A stretch of 64,000 nt of DNA from Oscillospiraceae bacterium. GTDB lineage: Bacteria > Bacillota > Clostridia > Oscillospirales > Oscillospiraceae. The notes beneath the pieces are model-generated. The model was not told the origin of the DNA, ran no database searches, and was given only the letters and a program-made list of their open reading frames with translations. Numbering within the stretch: position 1 is the first letter of the stretch; every line of letters begins with the position of its first letter. This document shows, in pieces, positions 39,245 through 49,943 of this stretch. The stretch is from positions 70-64,069 of the forward strand of contig JAGBBD010000029.1 in the NCBI GenBank assembly GCA_017938625.1. Direction: 5' to 3'. The translations under genes were made by a program, and so were the position numbers.

Positions 39245-40467
39245 TTTTTATGCGTTATTTTGTGCATTTTAGAGCATGACGAATAGGCCACCAGCCCGGG
39301 CCGTCTGGTAGCCTTTCCACTTTATCCCCCAATTTTTGCACAATTATATATTAAATGTGGACAACTGGCGCGGAAACACCCGCCGTTTCTGCCCATTCGG
39401 CCAGCGCTGTGTTTGCGCAGACGCCGCCTAAAATCCCTCTCGGGTAGTTGTTCATCCAGTTTTCGATTTCTTTTACCTGTTTGGCGGTCACTTCTGCCAG
39501 GTTGGTCCCCTTCGGAAGCCACCGGCGGATAAGGATGTTTGCGTTCTCGTTGCTGCCTCGCTCAAAGGCGCTGTACGGATGACAGTAATATACGTGTGTC
39601 CGCTTCTGCTTTGTCAGGCACGACCGCTCTATGCCCTCGCAGTCCGCGAACTCGCTACCGTTGTCCACAGTTATCGTGTGGAAGATGCTGCGGAACAGCC
39701 GGGACCCCAGTTTTCTTTCCAGCCGGTCCAGCGCTTTGACCGTGCTCGCCATGGTGCCATCCGGCATCTTTATGATGACCTCCCGCCGGAACTTCCGCTC
39801 CGTCAGAACTAACAGCCTGTGCAAATCTCCCTTGCAGCTCTCCACCGTGTCCATCTCCCAGTCACCGAAGAACTCCCGCTGCGCGATCTCCTGCGGGCGG
39901 TCCTCAATGCTGTCGCCCTTGGGCAGCCGGGCGGCGCGCACCTTCCGATACGCTTTGTTCTTCTTGGCCTTCCGGGGCAAGTTCTTATTTGTGATGCCCA
40001 GGAAAACGCCCTTTGTGATGTAGGAGTACAGCGTCCACTTGGAGATCGTCACGGAGAAGGTCAGCCCCTCCTCCTTGATCTTATACAGAACCGCCTCCGG
40101 GGAATACTTCTCGTTTACGATCTTGTCCTCGATGTACGCGGCCAGCGCGTAGTCGCTGCCCAGTTTCAGGGCCGGACCCTTTGCCGCGAGGTTAGCCTGG
40201 TATTTGTTCTCGGCCACATCCGGGCAATACACTTCTCTGTCGATCAGGTCCGTTGTGCGCTGGATAGCCGCGCCCCGCTTCAACTCCCGGTAGATGGTGG
40301 TGCTGTGTACGTGTAGGGCAGCCGCAATTTCCTTGGGCTTCTTTCCCTCTTTCAGCATCTTCTCAATTTTCAATCGGTCTTTCCACTTGAGATGGGAAAA
40401 GCGCCGTCCTTTTTCGCTGCTCATGGTTGGTATCCTCCTTTTGTGTGGGGATAATAACCCATAAAAA
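39245..40467 (-). mobile_element. IS30-family insertion sequence (boundaries tentative, ~1.22 kb)
   Basis: Single transposase ORF. The only terminal inverted repeat I could find is TTTTTATGCGTTATT (39245-59) against AATAACCCATAAAAA (40453-67), 14/15 complementary. No clear target duplication was seen. Confidence 0.55.
39351..40424 (-). CDS. IS30-family DDE transposase (357 aa)
   Basis: N-terminal HTH (HLKWKDRLKIEKMLKEGKKPKEIAAALHVHSTTIYRELKRG). The catalytic core has GDWEMDTV, ITVDNGSEF and the YYCHPYSAFERGSNEN region typical of IS30. Confidence 0.92.
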   Translation of the reverse strand: MSSEKGRRFSHLKWKDRLKIEKMLKEGKKPKEIAAALHVHSTTIYRELKRGAAIQRTTDLIDREVYCPDVAENKYQANLAAKGPALKLGSDYALAAYIEDKIVNEKYSPEAVLYKIKEEGLTFSVTISKWTLYSYITKGVFLGITNKNLPRKAKKNKAYRKVRAARLPKGDSIEDRPQEIAQREFFGDWEMDTVESCKGDLHRLLVLTERKFRREVIIKMPDGTMASTVKALDRLERKLGSRLFRSIFHTITVDNGSEFADCEGIERSCLTKQKRTHVYYCHPYSAFERGSNENANILIRRWLPKGTNLAEVTAKQVKEIENWMNNYPRGILGGVCANTALAEWAETAGVSAPVVHI

Positions 40468-42247: not shown

Positions 42248-43771
42248 TTACTTGGCAGGGATTTTCAAAACCTGCCCGATCTTGATGATGGTGGATTTCA
42301 TGCCGTTTACCTGCATGATCTCCTTGTACCTGCTCCCGTTCCCGAGATAGGTATTTGCCAGCGCCCAAAGGCTGTCGCCACGGACAACGGTGTGCGTGCG
42401 GTAGCCGTTGGCGTTGGAGCTGCTGCCGCCGATGTCAGCGGCGTCTACCCAGCCGTACACGGTACTTCCGCCGCCGGTCTGGCGCACCAGGTGATAGGGA
42501 TGCTTCGCGCCCTTTGCGATGGCCGTCACCTTGGCCTTGCCCGGCTTGCAGGCGGGGCCTGCGGAGGCGTTGGCGCTGGCGTAGTGCTTTGCGCCGGTGA
42601 ACTCCACGATGTCGCCCACCTGGTAAGTCAAGCCGGTTGAGGCCGCAGGCTTCTCCGCTGCGCCGTCATAGGTGACATAGGGCAGCTTGCCGTGCTTGGT
42701 CCACTTCCGGGCGTTGTACCCGTCCTTGGTGCCGATGTTCTTAACTGCGGTGATCTGCACCTTGTTATCCCATGCGGGAGTACATTCCACAGCCAGTCCG
42801 TCGCCGATGTAGATGCCGATGTGACCAGAGCACCACAGCGCTTCGCCGATCTCCATACTGTCCCAGCCGGTCGCAGACACGCCGGAACACTTGGCGATCA
42901 TGCTGTCCGCTCCGATGTCCGGCACGCCGTTGGTGCCGTACTTGGCCCCGCCGTAGGTTTTGGAGCTGTCGCCGTCCCATCCCCACAGAATAGCCTTGAT
43001 AAGGCACACACAATCAAAGCCGAAATAGCCCTGGCCGATCAGCTTGCGGAAGGCCGCCTGCTTCTTCGCGGTGTACCACTCGGGATACTGCTTCGACTTC
43101 CCGGCGATCAGCGCCTCGCTGATAGGAGCGCCGAATACGCCCCACATATACACAGTGTTGTGGTTCTTGGCGATGTCAACCGCCTTCGCCACAAGTTCCT
43201 TTGCGGTCATCTTGGTTCCTCCGTTTCCGCTGTTCGTGCCGGTGACGGATTTCCCGCCGCCGTACTTGTTGAAATACTGCTGGCCGTAACCCGCCCGCTT
43301 CGCCTTCACGGCGCTGCCCTGGTCGGCAGGCCGCTCGAACTGGGTGAGCACGATGTCGGATGCTTCCTGCACGCTGGCGGTAGTCGTCAGCACGGCCAGC
43401 ACCTTCTTGTAGTTCTCCCGCAGCTCCTTCACAAGGAAGTCGAGCTGCATTTCCAGGTCTCCGATGCTCTTGCGGCAGCTCATGGCATAGTCCAGCAGCT
43501 CCGCTTTTCGTGAGCAGAAGGTCCACTGTGCCAGGCCGTAACCCGCGCTGTCATAGGCGAAGGCTTGATACTTCCCGTTGTCCACCGCTGCCGTGTACGT
43601 GGCGTCAGTGTACCCCAGCTTCTTCTCGTAGCTGTTCTGCAAATTGGTGGGTATCAGGCCGCTCTCCGCGTAGAGGTTGCCCATCAGGCCCGCTACGCCG
43701 TGGTCGGTCAGCCCCGCCGCCTTGAGATGGTTCCAGGTTTTTTCCTCGTTGGTTTTGCCCGTCAGGGCCAT
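42248..43771 (-). CDS. Multidomain endolysin: lysozyme-like N-terminal domain + NlpC/P60-like peptidase + SH3b-like + LysM
   Basis: N-terminus GLMGNLYAESG...GYGLAQWT (phage tail-lysozyme-like). Central region has FDCVCLIK...GHIGIYIG (Cys/His peptidase). An SH3-like segment ends in YGWVD. The C-terminal LysM is HTVVRGDSLWALA...YKEIMQVNG. Confidence 0.85.
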   Translation of the reverse strand: MALTGKTNEEKTWNHLKAAGLTDHGVAGLMGNLYAESGLIPTNLQNSYEKKLGYTDATYTAAVDNGKYQAFAYDSAGYGLAQWTFCSRKAELLDYAMSCRKSIGDLEMQLDFLVKELRENYKKVLAVLTTTASVQEASDIVLTQFERPADQGSAVKAKRAGYGQQYFNKYGGGKSVTGTNSGNGGTKMTAKELVAKAVDIAKNHNTVYMWGVFGAPISEALIAGKSKQYPEWYTAKKQAAFRKLIGQGYFGFDCVCLIKAILWGWDGDSSKTYGGAKYGTNGVPDIGADSMIAKCSGVSATGWDSMEIGEALWCSGHIGIYIGDGLAVECTPAWDNKVQITAVKNIGTKDGYNARKWTKHGKLPYVTYDGAAEKPAASTGLTYQVGDIVEFTGAKHYASANASAGPACKPGKAKVTAIAKGAKHPYHLVRQTGGGSTVYGWVDAADIGGSSSNANGYRTHTVVRGDSLWALANTYLGNGSRYKEIMQVNGMKSTIIKIGQVLKIPAK

Positions 43772-44203: not shown

Positions 44204-44512
44204 TTACATTCCGAACTGGTTGAACACAAAGCCGATGATGATACCGGCGACAGCGGTAGCGATGTAGCCCACGACTTTGCGCCACATCTCACCGTCCCGG
44301 CCTTCCAGCGTTTCAAGGCGCTTGCCCTGCTTCTCCTGCTCTTTGACCATGCTCTCTACACTGGTTGCCAGCTTGCCGACCGAGTTGGTCAGTTGGCCCA
44401 GCTCCCGCACGTTCTCCTCAAGCAGCTCGATACGCTTATCCTGGCGTCGGTTTTCTTCTTCCAGTCTGCGGCGGAACTCCTCATGCTCCGCCCGTGTGAT
44501 AGGAGTGTCCAT
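44204..44512 (-). CDS. XhlA-family (haemolysin XhlA-like) lysis-associated protein
   Basis: N-terminal coiled coil plus a single C-terminal TM (VVGYIATAVAGIIIGFVF), as in PBSX XhlA. RBS GAAGGAGGG. Confidence 0.75.
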   Translation of the reverse strand: MDTPITRAEHEEFRRRLEEENRRQDKRIELLEENVRELGQLTNSVGKLATSVESMVKEQEKQGKRLETLEGRDGEMWRKVVGYIATAVAGIIIGFVFNQFGM

Positions 44513-44584: not shown

Positions 44585-44782
44585 TTACGCTTCTTCCCCC
44601 GGCAGATCATCCGGCCATTCATCGTGACCGATCAGGGCGGTGTACCGGGCCTGCACCCGCTCGATGTCCTCCGCCAATGCCAGGGTGTCGTGCTGTTCGA
44701 GGAGCTTCTGCTGTTCCACCACGATCTTTGCCAGATCGCCGCAGATGCCGCATAGCTCCTCGATGATTTGCAGGTTACTCAC
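44585..44782 (-). CDS. Hypothetical small phage protein (65 aa, GTG start overlapping the XkdX stop)
   Basis: The only open frame filling the gap. The GTG lies within GTGAGTAA. There is no strong RBS. Confidence 0.4.
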   Translation of the reverse strand: MSNLQIIEELCGICGDLAKIVVEQQKLLEQHDTLALAEDIERVQARYTALIGHDEWPDDLPGEEA

Positions 44783-44957
44783 TGATCTCGCCGCCGGGGT
44801 ATTCCTCGCCGGTGATCTCCATGTACAGCTCGGCGCTGATCTTGCCCTCCGCCACGCGGTCGGCAAGCTCCGCCTTGACGCCTTCCTTACGGGAGGCAGG
44901 CACCTCGTCCCAGGTTCTCGTACCGGCTACCAGTCTGTTTGCCCAAATTACGTTCAT
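44775..44957 (-). CDS. XkdX-family small phage protein
   Basis: The ...W.....I.AELYMEITGEEY C-terminal pattern is typical of XkdX. Strong RBS AAGGAGG. Confidence 0.7.
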   Translation of the reverse strand: MNVIWANRLVAGTRTWDEVPASRKEGVKAELADRVAEGKISAELYMEITGEEYPGGEISE

Positions 44958-44973: not shown

Positions 44974-45345
44974 TTATCCGTTGGTGGCGCTGTCCAGCTC
45001 GCACAGGGCTTCCTCTACGGCTGCCAGCCTTTCCTCCGAAGCGTTGTCCATCTCGCACAGAGCTTCCTCCATGGCGATGATCGCCGCGCCGGTGGTTTCC
45101 TCGTTCTCGATGATGCGGGCGCGGTTGCGGAACACATACTCGGGTGCTTCCGCTTCCTGCACCAGGGCCTCGGGTGCATCAGGGATGGCGCTACCGCCGG
45201 GCAGGTTGTAGACCTCGCCGCCCACGGCGATGCCCTCCGCCTGCTCCTGGGGTGCTTCCACAAAGATGCCGCCCTGGTTTCGCTTCACATAGCGGGGCTG
45301 CTCGCACAGAGCCAGCAGCTCGCCGTTGCTCAAGATTGCATACAT
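44974..45345 (-). CDS. Hypothetical phage protein (123 aa)
   Basis: Strong RBS GAGGAGG. It has an acidic C-terminal half with the duplicated motif EEALCE(M/L)D. No family recognised. Confidence 0.6.
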   Translation of the reverse strand: MYAILSNGELLALCEQPRYVKRNQGGIFVEAPQEQAEGIAVGGEVYNLPGGSAIPDAPEALVQEAEAPEYVFRNRARIIENEETTGAAIIAMEEALCEMDNASEERLAAVEEALCELDSATNG

Positions 45346-45351
45346 GGGTCG

Positions 45352-45771
45352 TTACCTCCTCACTTTGATGTGCAGCGCGTCCGCGAGCTTTTGCAGCTCC
45401 GGCACCTCCGCCGCGAAAAAGTCCTCATTGAACAGAATGACCTCCACATCCTGCCGCAGGAAATGTGCCCACTCCCGTTCCAGCAGCTCGATCTCCTGGT
45501 CGGTGAAGCGCTGCACTCTGCCGTTTTCGCCTTTGCGCACTCTCTGGCTGTACGCGATGGCCCAGGTCAGCTTGCCGCGTTCCAGACCCATCCCGTCATC
45601 ATTCCGGGCGAAATGCTTCTTGGCGTTCTCACTGGTGGCAAAGCACACAGGCTTGCCCTCCTTGGTGATGATGAACTGGCCTGCGGTTTTCAGCTCCGTC
45701 CCGTAGGGGATGTTCAGCGTCTCGCCGCAGGCGGCCAGCTCCTTAAATCTGTTATGGGTGACGTAAATCAT
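45352..45771 (-). CDS. Hypothetical protein translationally coupled to the DGR reverse transcriptase (139 aa)
   Basis: Its ATG overlaps the RT stop codon (ATGA). An alternative GTG lies 6 nt upstream. No family recognised. Confidence 0.6.
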   Translation of the reverse strand: MIYVTHNRFKELAACGETLNIPYGTELKTAGQFIITKEGKPVCFATSENAKKHFARNDDGMGLERGKLTWAIAYSQRVRKGENGRVQRFTDQEIELLEREWAHFLRQDVEVILFNEDFFAAEVPELQKLADALHIKVRR

Positions 45772-47018
45772 GCGCACATTTCCTCCTCAATGACGGCACC
45801 GTGCCGCCGGTATATCCAGCCGCACCCTGTTCGTGAGGCCTTCATCGTACACGGGAACGGCAGACGCCGTCCCGCCAGCTCCGCCGCGAACATCTGCGTA
45901 AACCGCTCGTCCAGCGCCCGGAGCGTGTCGTAGCTGTTGCACCGCTTCGCGTGTGCCCGCCACGACTGGTAGGATTGAAATACATCCTCCGGGTCCAGCC
46001 GCCCCTCGTCCATCCAGCGACGAAAAATATCCATCTTCCGCCGCATAGACCGGATGCTTTTCCGGGACAGCTTCATCACGACCTTGCCGTTCTCCATCAG
46101 CCGCACCCGCATTTTCAGGAAGGTAAAGCTGTGGTGGCGAAACGGTGTGATGATGTTTTTCTTGTCGCTCATGGCGATGCCCAGCTCCTTCGCCAGCCGG
46201 TACAGGTTCCGCCGGATGTCCTCAAGCTCCTCTAAAGAATTGCTGATAACGTATCCGTCGTCCATGTACCGCCCGTATCCATGGATGCCTCTGACATCCT
46301 TCACGTAGTGGTCGATGGGGCTTGCATAGTCCAAAGCGATGATCTGCGACACTTCACTGCCCAGGCCCACGCCTCGGGCCACGTCCTTGTCGGCTGTTTT
46401 CATTCTCCGAAAATCGTCTACAAAGTCGCAAAGCAGGTTATACAGCCGGTCATCCACGATCTTCTCCCGTGCCCGCCGCTTGATCTCGTCATGTGGCAGG
46501 CTGCCAAAATAGCCCTTGAAGTCGAATTGATAGATGCCGCCCTCGGTGCCGTACTTCCGGTAGTGGTCCCGCAGGTGCTTCCGCAGACGCCCCAGCATAA
46601 AGTCCATGCCCTTGTCTTTCAGGCTCGCCGCGTTGTCATAGATGAAGCTCCGGGAATACACGCCGGTCAGCAGATTGGCACACAAGCATTTCTGTATCGC
46701 CCGCTCCTGGATGGGCAGCGCGTCGATATTCCGCAGTTTCCCGTGCTCCACTGTGGAAAAGCTGTGAAATCCGTGGAATACTCGCGTCCCGTTATACAGG
46801 CTGTCGTAGGTTCGTTGGGTCTCGCCCAACAGGTTCGTCTCAAAATTGATCGTCGAGGTTTTCCATCTCGCACCGTTGCAGCAGGCCTTACCCGCCGCGC
46901 ACAGGTTCTTGAAAGACATGACCTCCTCGAAGCGCGCGCCACCGGCTTCCCGCGCCTTCTGCAATCTGCGCGCCTTCCGCCGTTGGTATCTGGCTTCGTG
47001 CCTTTCCTGGCTATTCAA
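45768..47018 (-). CDS. DGR-type reverse transcriptase
   Basis: Catalytic YMDD (GRYMDDGYV), the LGSEVSQ motif that fits the DGR-specific [ILV]GxxxSQ signature, and a position next to the TR. The TTG start at 47018 is 8 nt after GGAGG. An alternative ATG lies at 46919. Confidence 0.92.
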   Translation of the reverse strand: MNSQERHEARYQRRKARRLQKAREAGGARFEEVMSFKNLCAAGKACCNGARWKTSTINFETNLLGETQRTYDSLYNGTRVFHGFHSFSTVEHGKLRNIDALPIQERAIQKCLCANLLTGVYSRSFIYDNAASLKDKGMDFMLGRLRKHLRDHYRKYGTEGGIYQFDFKGYFGSLPHDEIKRRAREKIVDDRLYNLLCDFVDDFRRMKTADKDVARGVGLGSEVSQIIALDYASPIDHYVKDVRGIHGYGRYMDDGYVISNSLEELEDIRRNLYRLAKELGIAMSDKKNIITPFRHHSFTFLKMRVRLMENGKVVMKLSRKSIRSMRRKMDIFRRWMDEGRLDPEDVFQSYQSWRAHAKRCNSYDTLRALDERFTQMFAAELAGRRLPFPCTMKASRTGCGWIYRRHGAVIEEEMCA

Positions 47019-47328
47019 TCATGGTGCCTCCAATGCAGTATCCCACCCGTACAGCGTTCGGCCCGACAGGTGGTTTGCGGGCTGCATAAGTTCCCGCACC
47101 TGATCTGTCTGCCGCAACGGTTTTCTGATAGCTGCATAACGGCTGCTCATGTAACTGGGGCACTCCCGTCAAAATCCCCAGCCATGCAAGAAGCGTCCGG
47201 GCTTCCGTATCGGGTGGCTATTTTAGGAATGAAGCCCGCATACACGGGCCAGTCTCCAAGGGTCAAGTTCTCCTTTAAGGGGTGGGGCGCGGCTTCACAT
47301 TTCGTTACTTGTCTGGCCCCAGTGTGTT

Positions 47329-47456
47329 CTTAAATCCCGGCGCGAAGCCATTCGAATTGTAGGCGTTGTTGTTGTTCGCACTGCCGTCCGTGTTCACATT
47401 GCAGAAGTTGTTCGTGTTGGTCGCATTCACGGAGCGGAGCCACCAGTTGCAGGCGT
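47329..47456 (-). repeat. DGR template repeat (TR), non-coding
   Basis: 128 nt align without gaps to 48120..48247 (offset 791). It is adenine-rich on the sense strand, with runs of AAC, and starts 27 nt after the avd stop. Confidence 0.92.
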
Positions 47457-47482
47457 GGCCGTCAGAACTTGCCCTAATGAAA

Positions 47483-47950
47483 TTACTGTGTTTTGCCCTG
47501 CCGGGCCTTCTGGTATCCCGCCCAGCGGCGCTTGTCGCTGTCCAGGATGCCCCGCAGGCGGGACAGGGCCGTATTTGCCAGCGTCGTCCAGGTCTGGAAC
47601 GTCCGCTCATACTCCTCCTTGTTCTTGAAGAAGTTGTTTCCGTCGTCCACCAGCTCATAGCAAAAGGTGATCTCACCCAGTAGCGCGTCCGCGTTGGCCG
47701 CCGCGATCATCAGATATCGGCGGCGCAGATCGTACTCCTGCGCGCTCATGTCCTTGTGTACGTAGATGCCGTTCCCTTTGAGCGAGTTTGTGTAGATTTC
47801 ACCCGCCATTTCCAGCAGCTTGTTCGTCGTCACATAACGGTAGCTCGCCGGGAACTTTCGCACGATACGCACCGTGGCCTTCCGCAGCTCCCGCGCATCC
47901 GCCACAAACTGCGCTACGGCGTCCTTCCTGCGGGATTTATATACTGCCAT
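47483..47950 (-). CDS. avd: Accessory variability determinant (Avd-like four-helix-bundle protein, 155 aa)
   Basis: Helical basic protein with KFPASYRY...LEMAGEIYTNSLKGN, which resembles the four-helix-bundle/Avd family. It occupies the canonical position between the VR and TR. Confidence 0.8.
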   Translation of the reverse strand: MAVYKSRRKDAVAQFVADARELRKATVRIVRKFPASYRYVTTNKLLEMAGEIYTNSLKGNGIYVHKDMSAQEYDLRRRYLMIAAANADALLGEITFCYELVDDGNNFFKNKEEYERTFQTWTTLANTALSRLRGILDSDKRRWAGYQKARQGKTQ

Positions 47951-48062
47951 GTTGGTTTCTCCCTTCTGTCATGCAGCCCGTCGCCCGGACGGGGCCACAA
48001 AAGCGGTCCCGCCCGGGGTGGTGCTGGTTGCTGTTTTGATACCTGGTTGCAGGCGTTTCGCC

Positions 48063-48082
48063 GCAGGGACTTGCGTCCCCGC
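48063..48082 (-). other. GC-rich hairpin just downstream of the VR (candidate DGR target-recognition hairpin/cruciform)
   Basis: The sense strand reads GCGGGGAC-GCAA-GTCCCTGC, an 8-bp stem (one G-T wobble) with a GNRA-type tetraloop. It lies 28 nt after the target stop codon. Confidence 0.6.
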
Positions 48083-48110
48083 AGCTTCACTTACGATGCC
48101 GGATTTAAGA

Positions 48111-49943
48111 TTAGGCCACCTTAAAGCCCGGCGCGAAGCCAGCCGAATGGTAGGCGCTGCGGTAGCTCGCACCGCCGTCCGTGCTCACACGGCAGAAGTA
48201 GTCCGTGCCGGTCGCACGCACGGAGCGGAGCCACCAGTAGCAGGCGGTCGTAGTCGCGTTGTGCTTATACTTGACCTTGCTGTTACCGTTCTTGTAGTAA
48301 TCATACTGCTTCTGGTAATTCTGCTCGGCACTGTTGGCGTAGCTTCTGGTGCCCTGTACCTCGAACTCGGACAGCAGCCAAATCTTGTCGGATGTGGTGG
48401 TCACGTAGCTGGCGGTGTTGGAGCCGCCGCCGGTGTTGTCGCTGTACTTGGTGCAGGCCGCGATCACGTTCTGCCATGCGGTAGGCATAGCAGCCAGGAA
48501 GGCGGGGCAGATGGTCTTGCGCATATAGCTGCCGTTCCAGCCGCCGGAGTTGCTGTTGCTGGTGTTCATACGGAAGCCTGCGGAGCTGCCAGTGTTGCCG
48601 TAGTTGCCGTCCACGAAAGCGATGTCCACGCCCGCGCTGGTCTTGCCGAACTGGAAGTGGATGCTGTTGCCGCCCTCCACGCTGCTGTTGTGGTTAAAGC
48701 CCAGGATGAAGGCGTAGTAGGTGCCGCTCAAAGACAGCGCGCCCACGGTGCCGGACAGGGCAATTCCCATCTTGTCGCCCACAGACCAGTAGTTTGCCGC
48801 CTGGCCGGACTGTGCTGCCGCCTGAATGGTGGCAGGAGTGTTGTCCGCAAGGGACGAGCTGGGCACGCTGACACTGACAGCGATGGTCTTGTTTGCGGGC
48901 GCGGTGTGGTTGGTGCCAGCCGCCACCTTCACGGTGATGGTGGCGTCACCGGCGGCCAGGCCAGTGATGACCACGTTGTTGCCGCTCACTTCCGCCTTTG
49001 CCACACTGGTGTTGCTGGACGTTGCGCTGATCGCGCCGTCGCCCGCGCGGGTTACCGCCACGGTCTCCGACAGAGTGGAGATGTCCAGGCTCACACTGGT
49101 CTTGCCCAGGGTCAGACTACCGGCGGCCTTGCCGATGGACCAGCTCACAGTCTTGGCCGTGGTGGTGCCGTCGTTCCACTGATAGTTCGCCTTGGGGGTA
49201 AAGGTGGCGTTGTAGCTACCGGCATTGGTGCCGGAGGTAGTTCCGCCGATGGTCAGCTTATTGCTGTCATAGTTGCTCCACTGGGGAGACTGGGCGCTGC
49301 CGGAATAGGTCAGGCTCCCGCTCTGCGCAGGGGTAGCCAGACTGGCCTTGCCGATGGTCCAGGTCACGCTCTTGGCCGTGGTGGTGCCGTCGGCCCACTC
49401 ATAGCCACTCTTGGGTGTGAAGGTGGCGGTATAGCTACCGGCATTGGTGCCGGAGGTAGTTCCGCCGATGGTCAGTCGCTCCTCGTCATAGCCGTTCCAC
49501 TGGGGAGACTGGGCGCTGCCCGTGTACGTCAGGCTCCCGCTCTGCGTGGGCACACTGTTGATGACGCTGTTGATCTTGGTAATGGCGTCCAAAGCGTCGT
49601 TGGCCGCCTGCTGGGCGTTCTGTGCTGCCGTGGCCGCGTCCTCCGCTGCCTGCTTGGCGGCGGCTGCGTTTTCCTCTGCGGCAGTGGCCGCGTCGGTGGC
49701 AGTCTTAACAGAGCCTTCCAGGCTGTTCGCCTTTTCCAGGGCCTCGTTGGCCTTGCCGTTGGCGTCGCCTGCGGTGCTCTCGGCATCAGCGGCCTTCTGC
49801 ATCGCTGCGTTTGCCGTGTTGCCTGCGCTGTTTGCAGCGTTCAGAGCGGCGTCCGCCTGCTCTTTGGCCTGCTGCGCCACCTGTCTTGCGATGGTAGCGT
49901 CTACCCCAGCAGCGCCAGGGGTATTAACTTGTCCTAAAGCCAT
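48111..49943 (-). CDS. DGR target: tail-fibre/receptor-binding-like protein with a C-terminal variable C-type-lectin-like domain (610 aa)
   Basis: Ala/Gln-rich coiled-coil N-terminus, two 73-aa tandem repeats, an Ig-like (Big_2-like) segment, and a C-terminal domain ending in YWWLRS...FAPGFKVA that contains the VR. Confidence 0.85.
   Translation of the reverse strand: MALGQVNTPGAAGVDATIARQVAQQAKEQADAALNAANSAGNTANAAMQKAADAESTAGDANGKANEALEKANSLEGSVKTATDAATAAEENAAAAKQAAEDAATAAQNAQQAANDALDAITKINSVINSVPTQSGSLTYTGSAQSPQWNGYDEERLTIGGTTSGTNAGSYTATFTPKSGYEWADGTTTAKSVTWTIGKASLATPAQSGSLTYSGSAQSPQWSNYDSNKLTIGGTTSGTNAGSYNATFTPKANYQWNDGTTTAKTVSWSIGKAAGSLTLGKTSVSLDISTLSETVAVTRAGDGAISATSSNTSVAKAEVSGNNVVITGLAAGDATITVKVAAGTNHTAPANKTIAVSVSVPSSSLADNTPATIQAAAQSGQAANYWSVGDKMGIALSGTVGALSLSGTYYAFILGFNHNSSVEGGNSIHFQFGKTSAGVDIAFVDGNYGNTGSSAGFRMNTSNSNSGGWNGSYMRKTICPAFLAAMPTAWQNVIAACTKYSDNTGGGSNTASYVTTTSDKIWLLSEFEVQGTRSYANSAEQNYQKQYDYYKNGNSKVKYKHNATTTACYWWLRSVRATGTDYFCRVSTDGGASYRSAYHSAGFAPGFKVA
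48120..48247 (-). repeat. DGR variable repeat (VR) at the 3' end of the target gene
   Basis: Differs from the TR at 21 of 128 positions, every one an A in the sense-strand TR. The invariant GC-rich 3' segment GGCTTCGCGCCGGG is shared (IMH-like). Confidence 0.92.
49113..49550 (-). repeat. In-frame 219-bp tandem duplication inside the DGR target gene
   Basis: P(T/A)QSGSLTY(T/S)GSAQSPQW...TIGGTTSGTNAGSY.ATFTPK...DGTTTAK.V.W.IGKA occurs twice (aa 132-204 and 205-277). Confidence 0.85.

Follow-up and report, generated by a model that had tools for sequence, protein, structure and literature searches.

Is the small gene that overlaps the reverse transcriptase (RT) of a DGR a component of that DGR, or a gene of the phage operon in which both are found? 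The window (the whole stretch of 64,000 nucleotides that was analysed) carries on its minus strand a complete DGR composed of a DUF6273 target, an Avd-like gene, a TR/VR pair and an RT. The target is a 610-aa fibre-like protein (48111..49943, minus strand; Pfam DUF6273, E 1.4e-16; phrog_37900, E 1e-195), whose lectin-like DUF6273 domain is C-terminal and carries VR (48120-48246) at the 3' end of the gene. A 155-aa Avd-like gene (47483..47950, minus strand; phrog_30516, E 4.6e-8) occupies the canonical place between the target gene and the template repeat (TR; 47329..47455, unstranded), a 127-nt direct repeat which is 84% identical to VR, and iterative searching found an Avd-like gene kept 5' of TR-RT in 85 loci. 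The RT itself is a protein of 416 aa (45768..47018, minus strand; Pfam RVT_1, E 8e-11; phrog_1423, E 2.4e-71). The tail module 5' of the DGR resembles that of P2 and includes Baseplate_J, Tail_P2_I and a tail-collar fibre.

The gene under study, referred to here as gene X (45352..45771, minus strand; 139 aa), comes directly after the RT. It is followed by gene Y (44974..45345, minus strand; 123 aa), which is conserved 3' of X and has no Pfam match, then by an XkdX-like small protein (44775..44957, minus strand; Pfam Phage_XkdX, E 5.9e-4, below the gathering score; TIGR01669, E 0.03) and by a 65-aa ORF (44585-44782) located between the Y/XkdX-like region and the lysis cassette. The latter is opened, and the tail module closed, by an XhlA/'hemolysin'-type protein (44204..44512, minus strand; phrog_937, E 2.5e-19); an endolysin with Phage_lysozyme2 and LysM domains lies at 42248-43771. 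The earlier note, made from the sequence alone, had proposed that X may be a new DGR accessory factor or simply the first of three small unassigned ORFs between the RT and XkdX, and the small neighbouring ORFs and the XkdX-like gene that it listed are indeed present. The C-terminus of Y contains a repeated EEALCE(M/L)D motif, and Y is more widespread than X; an ESM Atlas feature search with Y gave a weak lead to Phage_YomQ_N.

On the minus strand, X runs from an ATG at 45771-45769 to a stop codon at 45354-45352 and its product begins with MIYVTHNRFKELAACGETLNIPYGTELK. The start codon overlaps the last sense codon and the stop of the RT, which ends in ...GCA TGA, so that the junction reads ATGA (45768..45771, minus strand), as can be seen directly on the sequence. 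Both the ORF and this overlap, which had been taken to imply co-translation with the RT, were confirmed. A Shine-Dalgarno-like GAGGAGGA (45781..45788, minus strand) is found 9 nt 5' of the ATG, within the RT coding sequence. The X homologues share the start methionine (M-x-Y-I/V), which favours this ATG over the upstream GTG at 45777. Of the 22 junctions between genes of the late operon, 4 are overlaps of 4 or 8 nt and 12 have gaps that do not exceed 26 nt; the RT/X overlap is ordinary for this operon and not distinctive. No promoter- or terminator-like site was found between RT, X and Y.

X is a real gene, since it has hundreds of homologues, a dN/dS well below 1, a confident structural model and a PHROG match. 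A word-indexed search of a database clustered at 90% recovered 250 homologues and an exhaustive profile search recovered 418 clusters at 50% identity, the identity within the family reaching down to about 30%. The dN/dS of 0.05-0.26 indicates purifying selection. Residues 3-134 of X align with positions 6-131 of the 135 positions of phrog_29409, a family of unknown function (E 3.9e-14). Conservation is strongest in a F-A-x-N-D-D-G-x-G-L-E-R-G-x-L-T segment and at S47, F118 and L126. That the ORF could be open by chance, or lie in a 3' segment of the DGR transcript that is not translated, is practically inconceivable: the homologues, the dN/dS, the fold and the PHROG match all refute it, and no point was found in its favour.

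An AlphaFold2 model of X, computed from an alignment of 92 diverse sequences, reached a pLDDT of 96.5 and a pTM of 0.88. The predicted structure consists of a six-stranded N-terminal barrel, of which residues 1-58 are SH3-like, followed by a helical C-terminal domain. Comparison of this model with PDB, AFDB clusters and BFVD using Foldseek returned only its own family and generic SH3 domains; VIA-align over 48,161 PDB chains and an ESM Atlas shape search likewise gave nothing beyond the family and SH3 barrels, the best fold Z scores (4.0-4.6) being restricted to residues 1-58 and to generic SH3 barrels. An ESM Atlas feature search with X was uninformative. At the sequence level, no match was obtained in Pfam (E <= 0.1), NCBIfam, PADLOC or a PDB sequence-profile search, nor was X found in defence or lysis libraries. 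The family is thus catalogued in PHROG and uncharacterised, with a predicted fold that has no match outside the family. The earlier note had judged X unlike Avd, HRDC-domain or MutS-like proteins and unlike any phage structural family that it recognised, in line with the absence of a match to any annotated family in Pfam, PHROG, NCBIfam, PDB and PADLOC; the profile and structure searches that it had recommended revealed no confident match to an unrelated tail or lysis function.

Among the members of phrog_29409 are gp73 of Faecalibacterium phage FP_Taranis and a hypothetical protein of Dulem virus 34, which align with X over its full length at 29-34% identity and possess the invariant residues of the family. 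In both phages, the gene occupies the same place as in the window, after a DUF6273 DGR target, an Avd-like gene and an RT and before the lysis genes; they differ from the window by an extra gene (of 57 or 236 aa) between RT and X and by the lack of Y. Papers dealing with DUF6273 'tentaclin' targets and with Faecalibacterium DGR prophages make no mention of X. In public records, gp73 of NC_047914.1 and UniProt A0A2V2GQ35 bear the name 'isoaspartyl peptidase', for which none of the searches gave support and which seems to be an annotation error passed on between records.

We then compared X with the known DGR accessory proteins. Wu et al. 2018 described Avd, HRDC, MSL and CH1 as DGR accessories, together with the tentative PAG1-4 (PMC5758913). 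Avd is a basic helical bundle with an average pI of 9.5 that binds the RT and forms a homopentamer in BPP-1 (PMC5758913). X resembles Avd in being a small protein encoded in the operon of a DGR RT. In contrast, X is near neutral, with a pI of 6.43 (family median 6.58), is predicted to fold into an SH3-like barrel and a helical domain and not into a helical bundle, gave no Avd-related match in Pfam, NCBIfam or PHROG, and is accompanied by an Avd-like gene distinct from it. In the Bordetella phage BPP-1 prototype, avd lies between the target and TR, as does the Avd-like gene of the window, whereas X is downstream of the RT. No HRDC or MutS_I signal was detected in X by Pfam, which separates it from HRDC and MSL. 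CH1 is a protein of 160-169 aa with an acidic pI of 4.7, found only in DGRs without avd (PMC5758913); with its 139 aa, its pI of 6.4 and an avd-like gene close by, X is set apart by this description. X resembles PAG1-4 in that it too is common to a set of related DGR cassettes. Wu et al. cautioned that genes common to a few DGRs may be phage genes conserved among related phages (PMC5758913), and X fits this caution.

The association between X and the RT was analysed in 80 loci from IMG/VR and 37 loci from species-representative genomes, plus a 201-genome sample of the family. X adjoins a DGR RT in 53 of the 68 de-replicated lineages, in most cases with an overlap of 4-58 nt. The junction is an ATGA (-4) in the clade of the window, an overlap of 14-58 nt in other clades and a 14-nt gap in one clade; in the Taranis/Dulem clade, RT and X are 480-700 nt apart because of the extra gene. 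Y follows X at 9-24 nt in most loci. A programmed frameshift that would yield an RT-X protein is unsupported: the junction offsets (negative for an overlap) are -4, -14, -20 to -29, -58, +5 and +14 depending on the clade, so that X does not keep a constant frame relative to the RT and no frameshift geometry is conserved.

In several lineages, RT and X are joined in a single reading frame, and these fusions have at least four different junction sequences. One is found in the L038-L043 phage, recovered from six metagenomes (protein cluster P0269, 86 members), and others in clusters P0270, P0271 and P0272, the last of which has 120 members. Cluster P0176 comes from a 10-kb contig in which the order is DUF6273, Avd-like gene and RT-X, and cluster P0179 from a short contig that constitutes weak evidence. 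The X part has diverged down to 64% identity among RT-X proteins that are still fused. The fusion of locus L038 keeps an internal GGAG and the ATG of X, and free X may therefore still be produced. An AlphaFold2 model of this natural fusion gave two well-folded domains (pLDDT 90.6; pTM 0.72) connected by a low-confidence linker, the first ~35 residues of X resting on only three sequences; this single model showed no confident docking of the two domains.

X also evolves in concert with the RT. In the 42 de-replicated loci that contain all genes, distances between X proteins correlated with those between RTs (r 0.92) more tightly than with those of Y (r 0.81) or of the fibre domain (r 0.76). Among RT-bearing loci, the partial correlation of X with the RT given the fibre domain was 0.79, while that of X with the fibre domain given the RT was 0.04, and the division of X into two deep clades has its counterpart in the RT tree. 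Fusions of this kind are classic 'Rosetta stone' evidence for a function in common with the RT. Both observations are genuine but partly expected, because X abuts or overlaps its upstream gene, such that a single indel can fuse them, and because overlapping genes admit no recombination breakpoint between them.

These data raise the possibility that X is a facultative partner of the RT, acting in trans through translational coupling or in cis through fusion, which would aid retrohoming or couple it to the target, with a second role keeping X after loss of the cassette. The adjacency in 53 of 68 lineages, the fusions with several independent junctions that persist through divergence, and a co-divergence that is tighter with the RT than with Y, the other neighbour, all argue for it, as does the small N-terminal barrel, whose SH3-like fold belongs to a class in which binding of nucleic acids or peptides is frequent. 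Against it, the cassette already has an Avd and X is not basic. On balance with the results below, we regard this reading as the main rival of the one preferred here, and as a rather unlikely one. In a more specific form, X would be a new DGR partner domain (SH3-like/helical) that works with the RT, in trans through start-stop coupling or in cis by fusion, perhaps connecting the machinery of retrohoming with the lectin-like target or with the gene for it, and that is retained after loss of the DGR because of a second role with the fibre; this form, too, appears rather unlikely.

If X were a dedicated component of the DGR, it would be expected to depend on it and to be lost together with the RT. 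This is not what was found. In 15 de-replicated lineages, X is present and avd-TR-RT is absent. In every RT-less locus with enough flanking sequence, X starts 5-170 nt past the stop of a DUF6273-type protein, the Pfam DUF6273 domain being confirmed in four of them, and Y comes after X as usual. The RT-less state mapped on the X tree required 12 changes, at least six of which are forced by well-supported branches, and its clustering was no greater than with shuffled labels. The whole records of six RT-less phage contigs contained no DGR RT, and as a positive control the same search detected the RT in each of 4 RT-bearing records; one of the RT-less phage records is 46.5 kb long and rated 100% complete. 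In the genome of the Anaerolentibacter hominis isolate, X follows a DUF6273 gene and no DGR RT profile match was detected at E <= 0.001. The earlier note had asked whether the family always neighbours a DGR RT; with 15 RT-less lineages and at least six independent changes, it does not, and the presence of homologues in phages lacking DGRs, among them a phage record rated complete, and in an isolate genome, counts against an accessory role.

The junctions of several RT-less loci can be aligned with those of RT-bearing relatives. L048 and L071 do not differ from their RT-bearing relatives L047 and L053 over the fibre stop codon and the 13 nt that follow it, and the sequence then passes straight into the X ribosome-binding site. 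In L061, ~190 nt of the post-fibre hairpin region are kept, nearly identical to the RT-bearing relatives, and the ATG of X is at the position of the avd ATG in these relatives. The alignments therefore indicate that the cassette, from the start of avd to the end of the RT, is cleanly absent. Purine-rich, RBS-like sequences that resemble each other (…AAGAAC(G)AA(A)GGAGA…) stand before both avd and X (L047:1660-1960, L061:7760-8010 and L048:7900-8010; compare 45772-48110 of the window). Recombination between the avd and X RBS-like sequences could excise exactly avd-TR-RT.

X remains under purifying selection once the cassette is gone. The residues S47, D59, G62, R65, G66 and F118 are each kept in 15 of the 15 RT-less X proteins, and dN/dS is 0.10-0.23 in RT-less lineages versus 0.05-0.26 beside an RT. 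Two further loci, L020 (6886-6888) and L087 (G155:C7), have an RT broken by in-frame stops next to an intact X, and may represent decaying DGRs. This retention of a conserved and selected X in at least six independent RT-less lineages, and its occurrence in an isolate genome in which no DGR RT profile match was seen, weigh against the facultative partnership with the RT considered above.

Conversely, X is not present throughout the DGRs of the same RT lineage, as a dedicated component should be. Three loci carry an intact related DGR without X: in the 201-genome sample, L159 and L160 show the order VP-avd-TR-RT-Y, where VP is the fibre-like target gene, and L161 (G015:C5:1000-15500) shows the order VP-Y-XkdX-avd-TR-RT. 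Since the cassette of L161 sits after Y and the XkdX-like gene, its position among the post-fibre genes is not fixed. The RT, the Avd and the DUF6273 target of these three loci are all related to those of X-linked DGRs, and their RTs branch between both X-linked RT clades. In the absence of X, Y is found directly after the RT or after the fibre gene, and fibre genes of the DUF6273 type also occur without X. A dedicated role in the DGR is unlikely, because X survives repeated loss of the cassette, conserved and under selection, and because intact sister DGRs lack X; the latter also speak against a facultative partnership with the RT. Of the proposal that X is a new DGR accessory, the frequent proximity to the RT, with overlap and sometimes fusion, is borne out, whereas the RT-less lineages and the related X-less DGRs speak against a dedicated accessory role; the proposal is thus only partly supported.

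X can also be joined to a gene other than the RT. In two loci on Selenomonadaceae MAG contigs, L129 (7203-8345) and L130, a 380-aa ORF has the X domain (profile positions 14-133) as its C-terminal part, preceded by 260 residues in which coiled-coil segments (...LQxQI...) recur, as is typical for the shaft of a fibre; the L129 protein matches phrog_29409 at E 2.3e-30. Neither an RT nor a DUF6273 gene was found within 8 kb upstream of these ORFs. Fusion of X to any upstream gene therefore seems mechanically easy, and this second type of fusion is a further point against a partnership with the RT.

An X that is optional in both directions might be just a passenger late gene, with a role for instance in lysis timing or exclusion, linked to its neighbours by position alone. 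DGR-bearing and DGR-free relatives without X do exist, the fibre-to-holin region contains several small variably present genes (Y, the XkdX-like gene and the 65-aa ORF), and in the Taranis/Dulem clade X stands directly before a holin-like gene and is separated from the RT by a further gene. On the other hand, X lacks a separate promoter and terminator and is closely packed with its neighbours in the late operon for translation, its place directly after the fibre gene or the cassette does not change even at about 30% sequence identity, and it matches nothing in defence or lysis libraries. We thus consider a passenger gene improbable, and less likely than a facultative partner of the RT.

Taken together, these results lead us to favour, with some reservation, the view that X is a late-operon companion of the distal tail-fibre module and not a part of the DGR, a view to which the second proposal of the earlier note, that of a small ORF in the tail-to-lysis region, comes closer. 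X would be a conserved, cytoplasmic, late-expressed phage protein, and the stable unit would consist of the DUF6273 receptor-binding fibre gene, X, Y, optionally XkdX, and the lysis genes. The avd-TR-RT segment would behave as a separate exchangeable cassette, inserted mostly between the fibre gene and X and repeatedly lost or exchanged with X unaffected. The ATGA overlap would then reflect the usual tight packing of the operon, X having its own ribosome-binding site and starting shortly past whichever gene is upstream, which may be the RT or the fibre gene or, in one lineage, a gene for a coiled-coil, fibre-like protein with which X is fused. From this constant position, we infer that X acts on or with the fibre encoded upstream, for example in its maturation or assembly, or by partnering its lectin-like tip. 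Such a role in the maturation, assembly or partnering of the fibre is our preferred mechanism; it would imply a contact between X and the fibre and a biochemical activity of X, both of which are proposed here from genomic context.

Several results run counter to this fibre-companion role. RT-X fusions have arisen recurrently, with at least four junctions; X tracks the RT, and not the fibre domain once the RT is controlled for, which gene overlap could explain; and the two deep X clades mirror the deep RT clades. X is moreover optional among DUF6273 phages and has no similarity to a known fibre-chaperone fold.

Genes for fibre assembly or chaperone proteins are known directly 3' of fibre genes in several phages, such as T4 gp38/gp57A, lambda Tfa, P2 gpG and Mu U'. 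X follows the same genomic logic, that of a gene for a small non-membrane protein placed after a fibre gene in a late operon. In RT-less loci it lies immediately 3' of the fibre gene, and elsewhere only avd-TR-RT intervenes. It differs from these chaperones in having no sequence or fold similarity to them in Pfam, PHROG, PDB or AFDB, and it shows no resemblance to a known family of this type (Caudo_TAP and similar).

The DGRs of gut Oscillospiraceae/Faecalibacterium-type phages are among the commonest hypermutation systems of the human gut virome, and the most obvious accessory candidate of this clade, the RT-overlapping X, is not a dedicated DGR part. The avd-TR-RT segment behaves as a discrete unit that comes and goes as a whole, with clean borders, at the site between X and the gene of the lectin-tipped fibre. 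The X family comprises no fewer than 418 clusters at 50% identity and is associated with receptor-binding proteins of the DUF6273 type. A role of X in fibre maturation, or as a facultative partner of the RT, would, if confirmed, matter for engineering or interpreting the diversification of host range in gut phages.

Two minor observations concern the records in which the module was found and the edge of the prophage. A near-identical Oscillospiraceae-type prophage module is present in L095, labelled as uncultured Desulfovibrio, and in L113, labelled as Prevotella, the X proteins of which are 83% and 40% identical to that of the window, respectively; these look like mis-binned phage contigs in MAGs and not true hosts. 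Just past the end of the prophage in the window, a 357-aa ORF (39351-40424, minus strand) resembles by eye an IS30-family transposase, with a helix-turn-helix N-terminus and a DDE-type C-terminal part.
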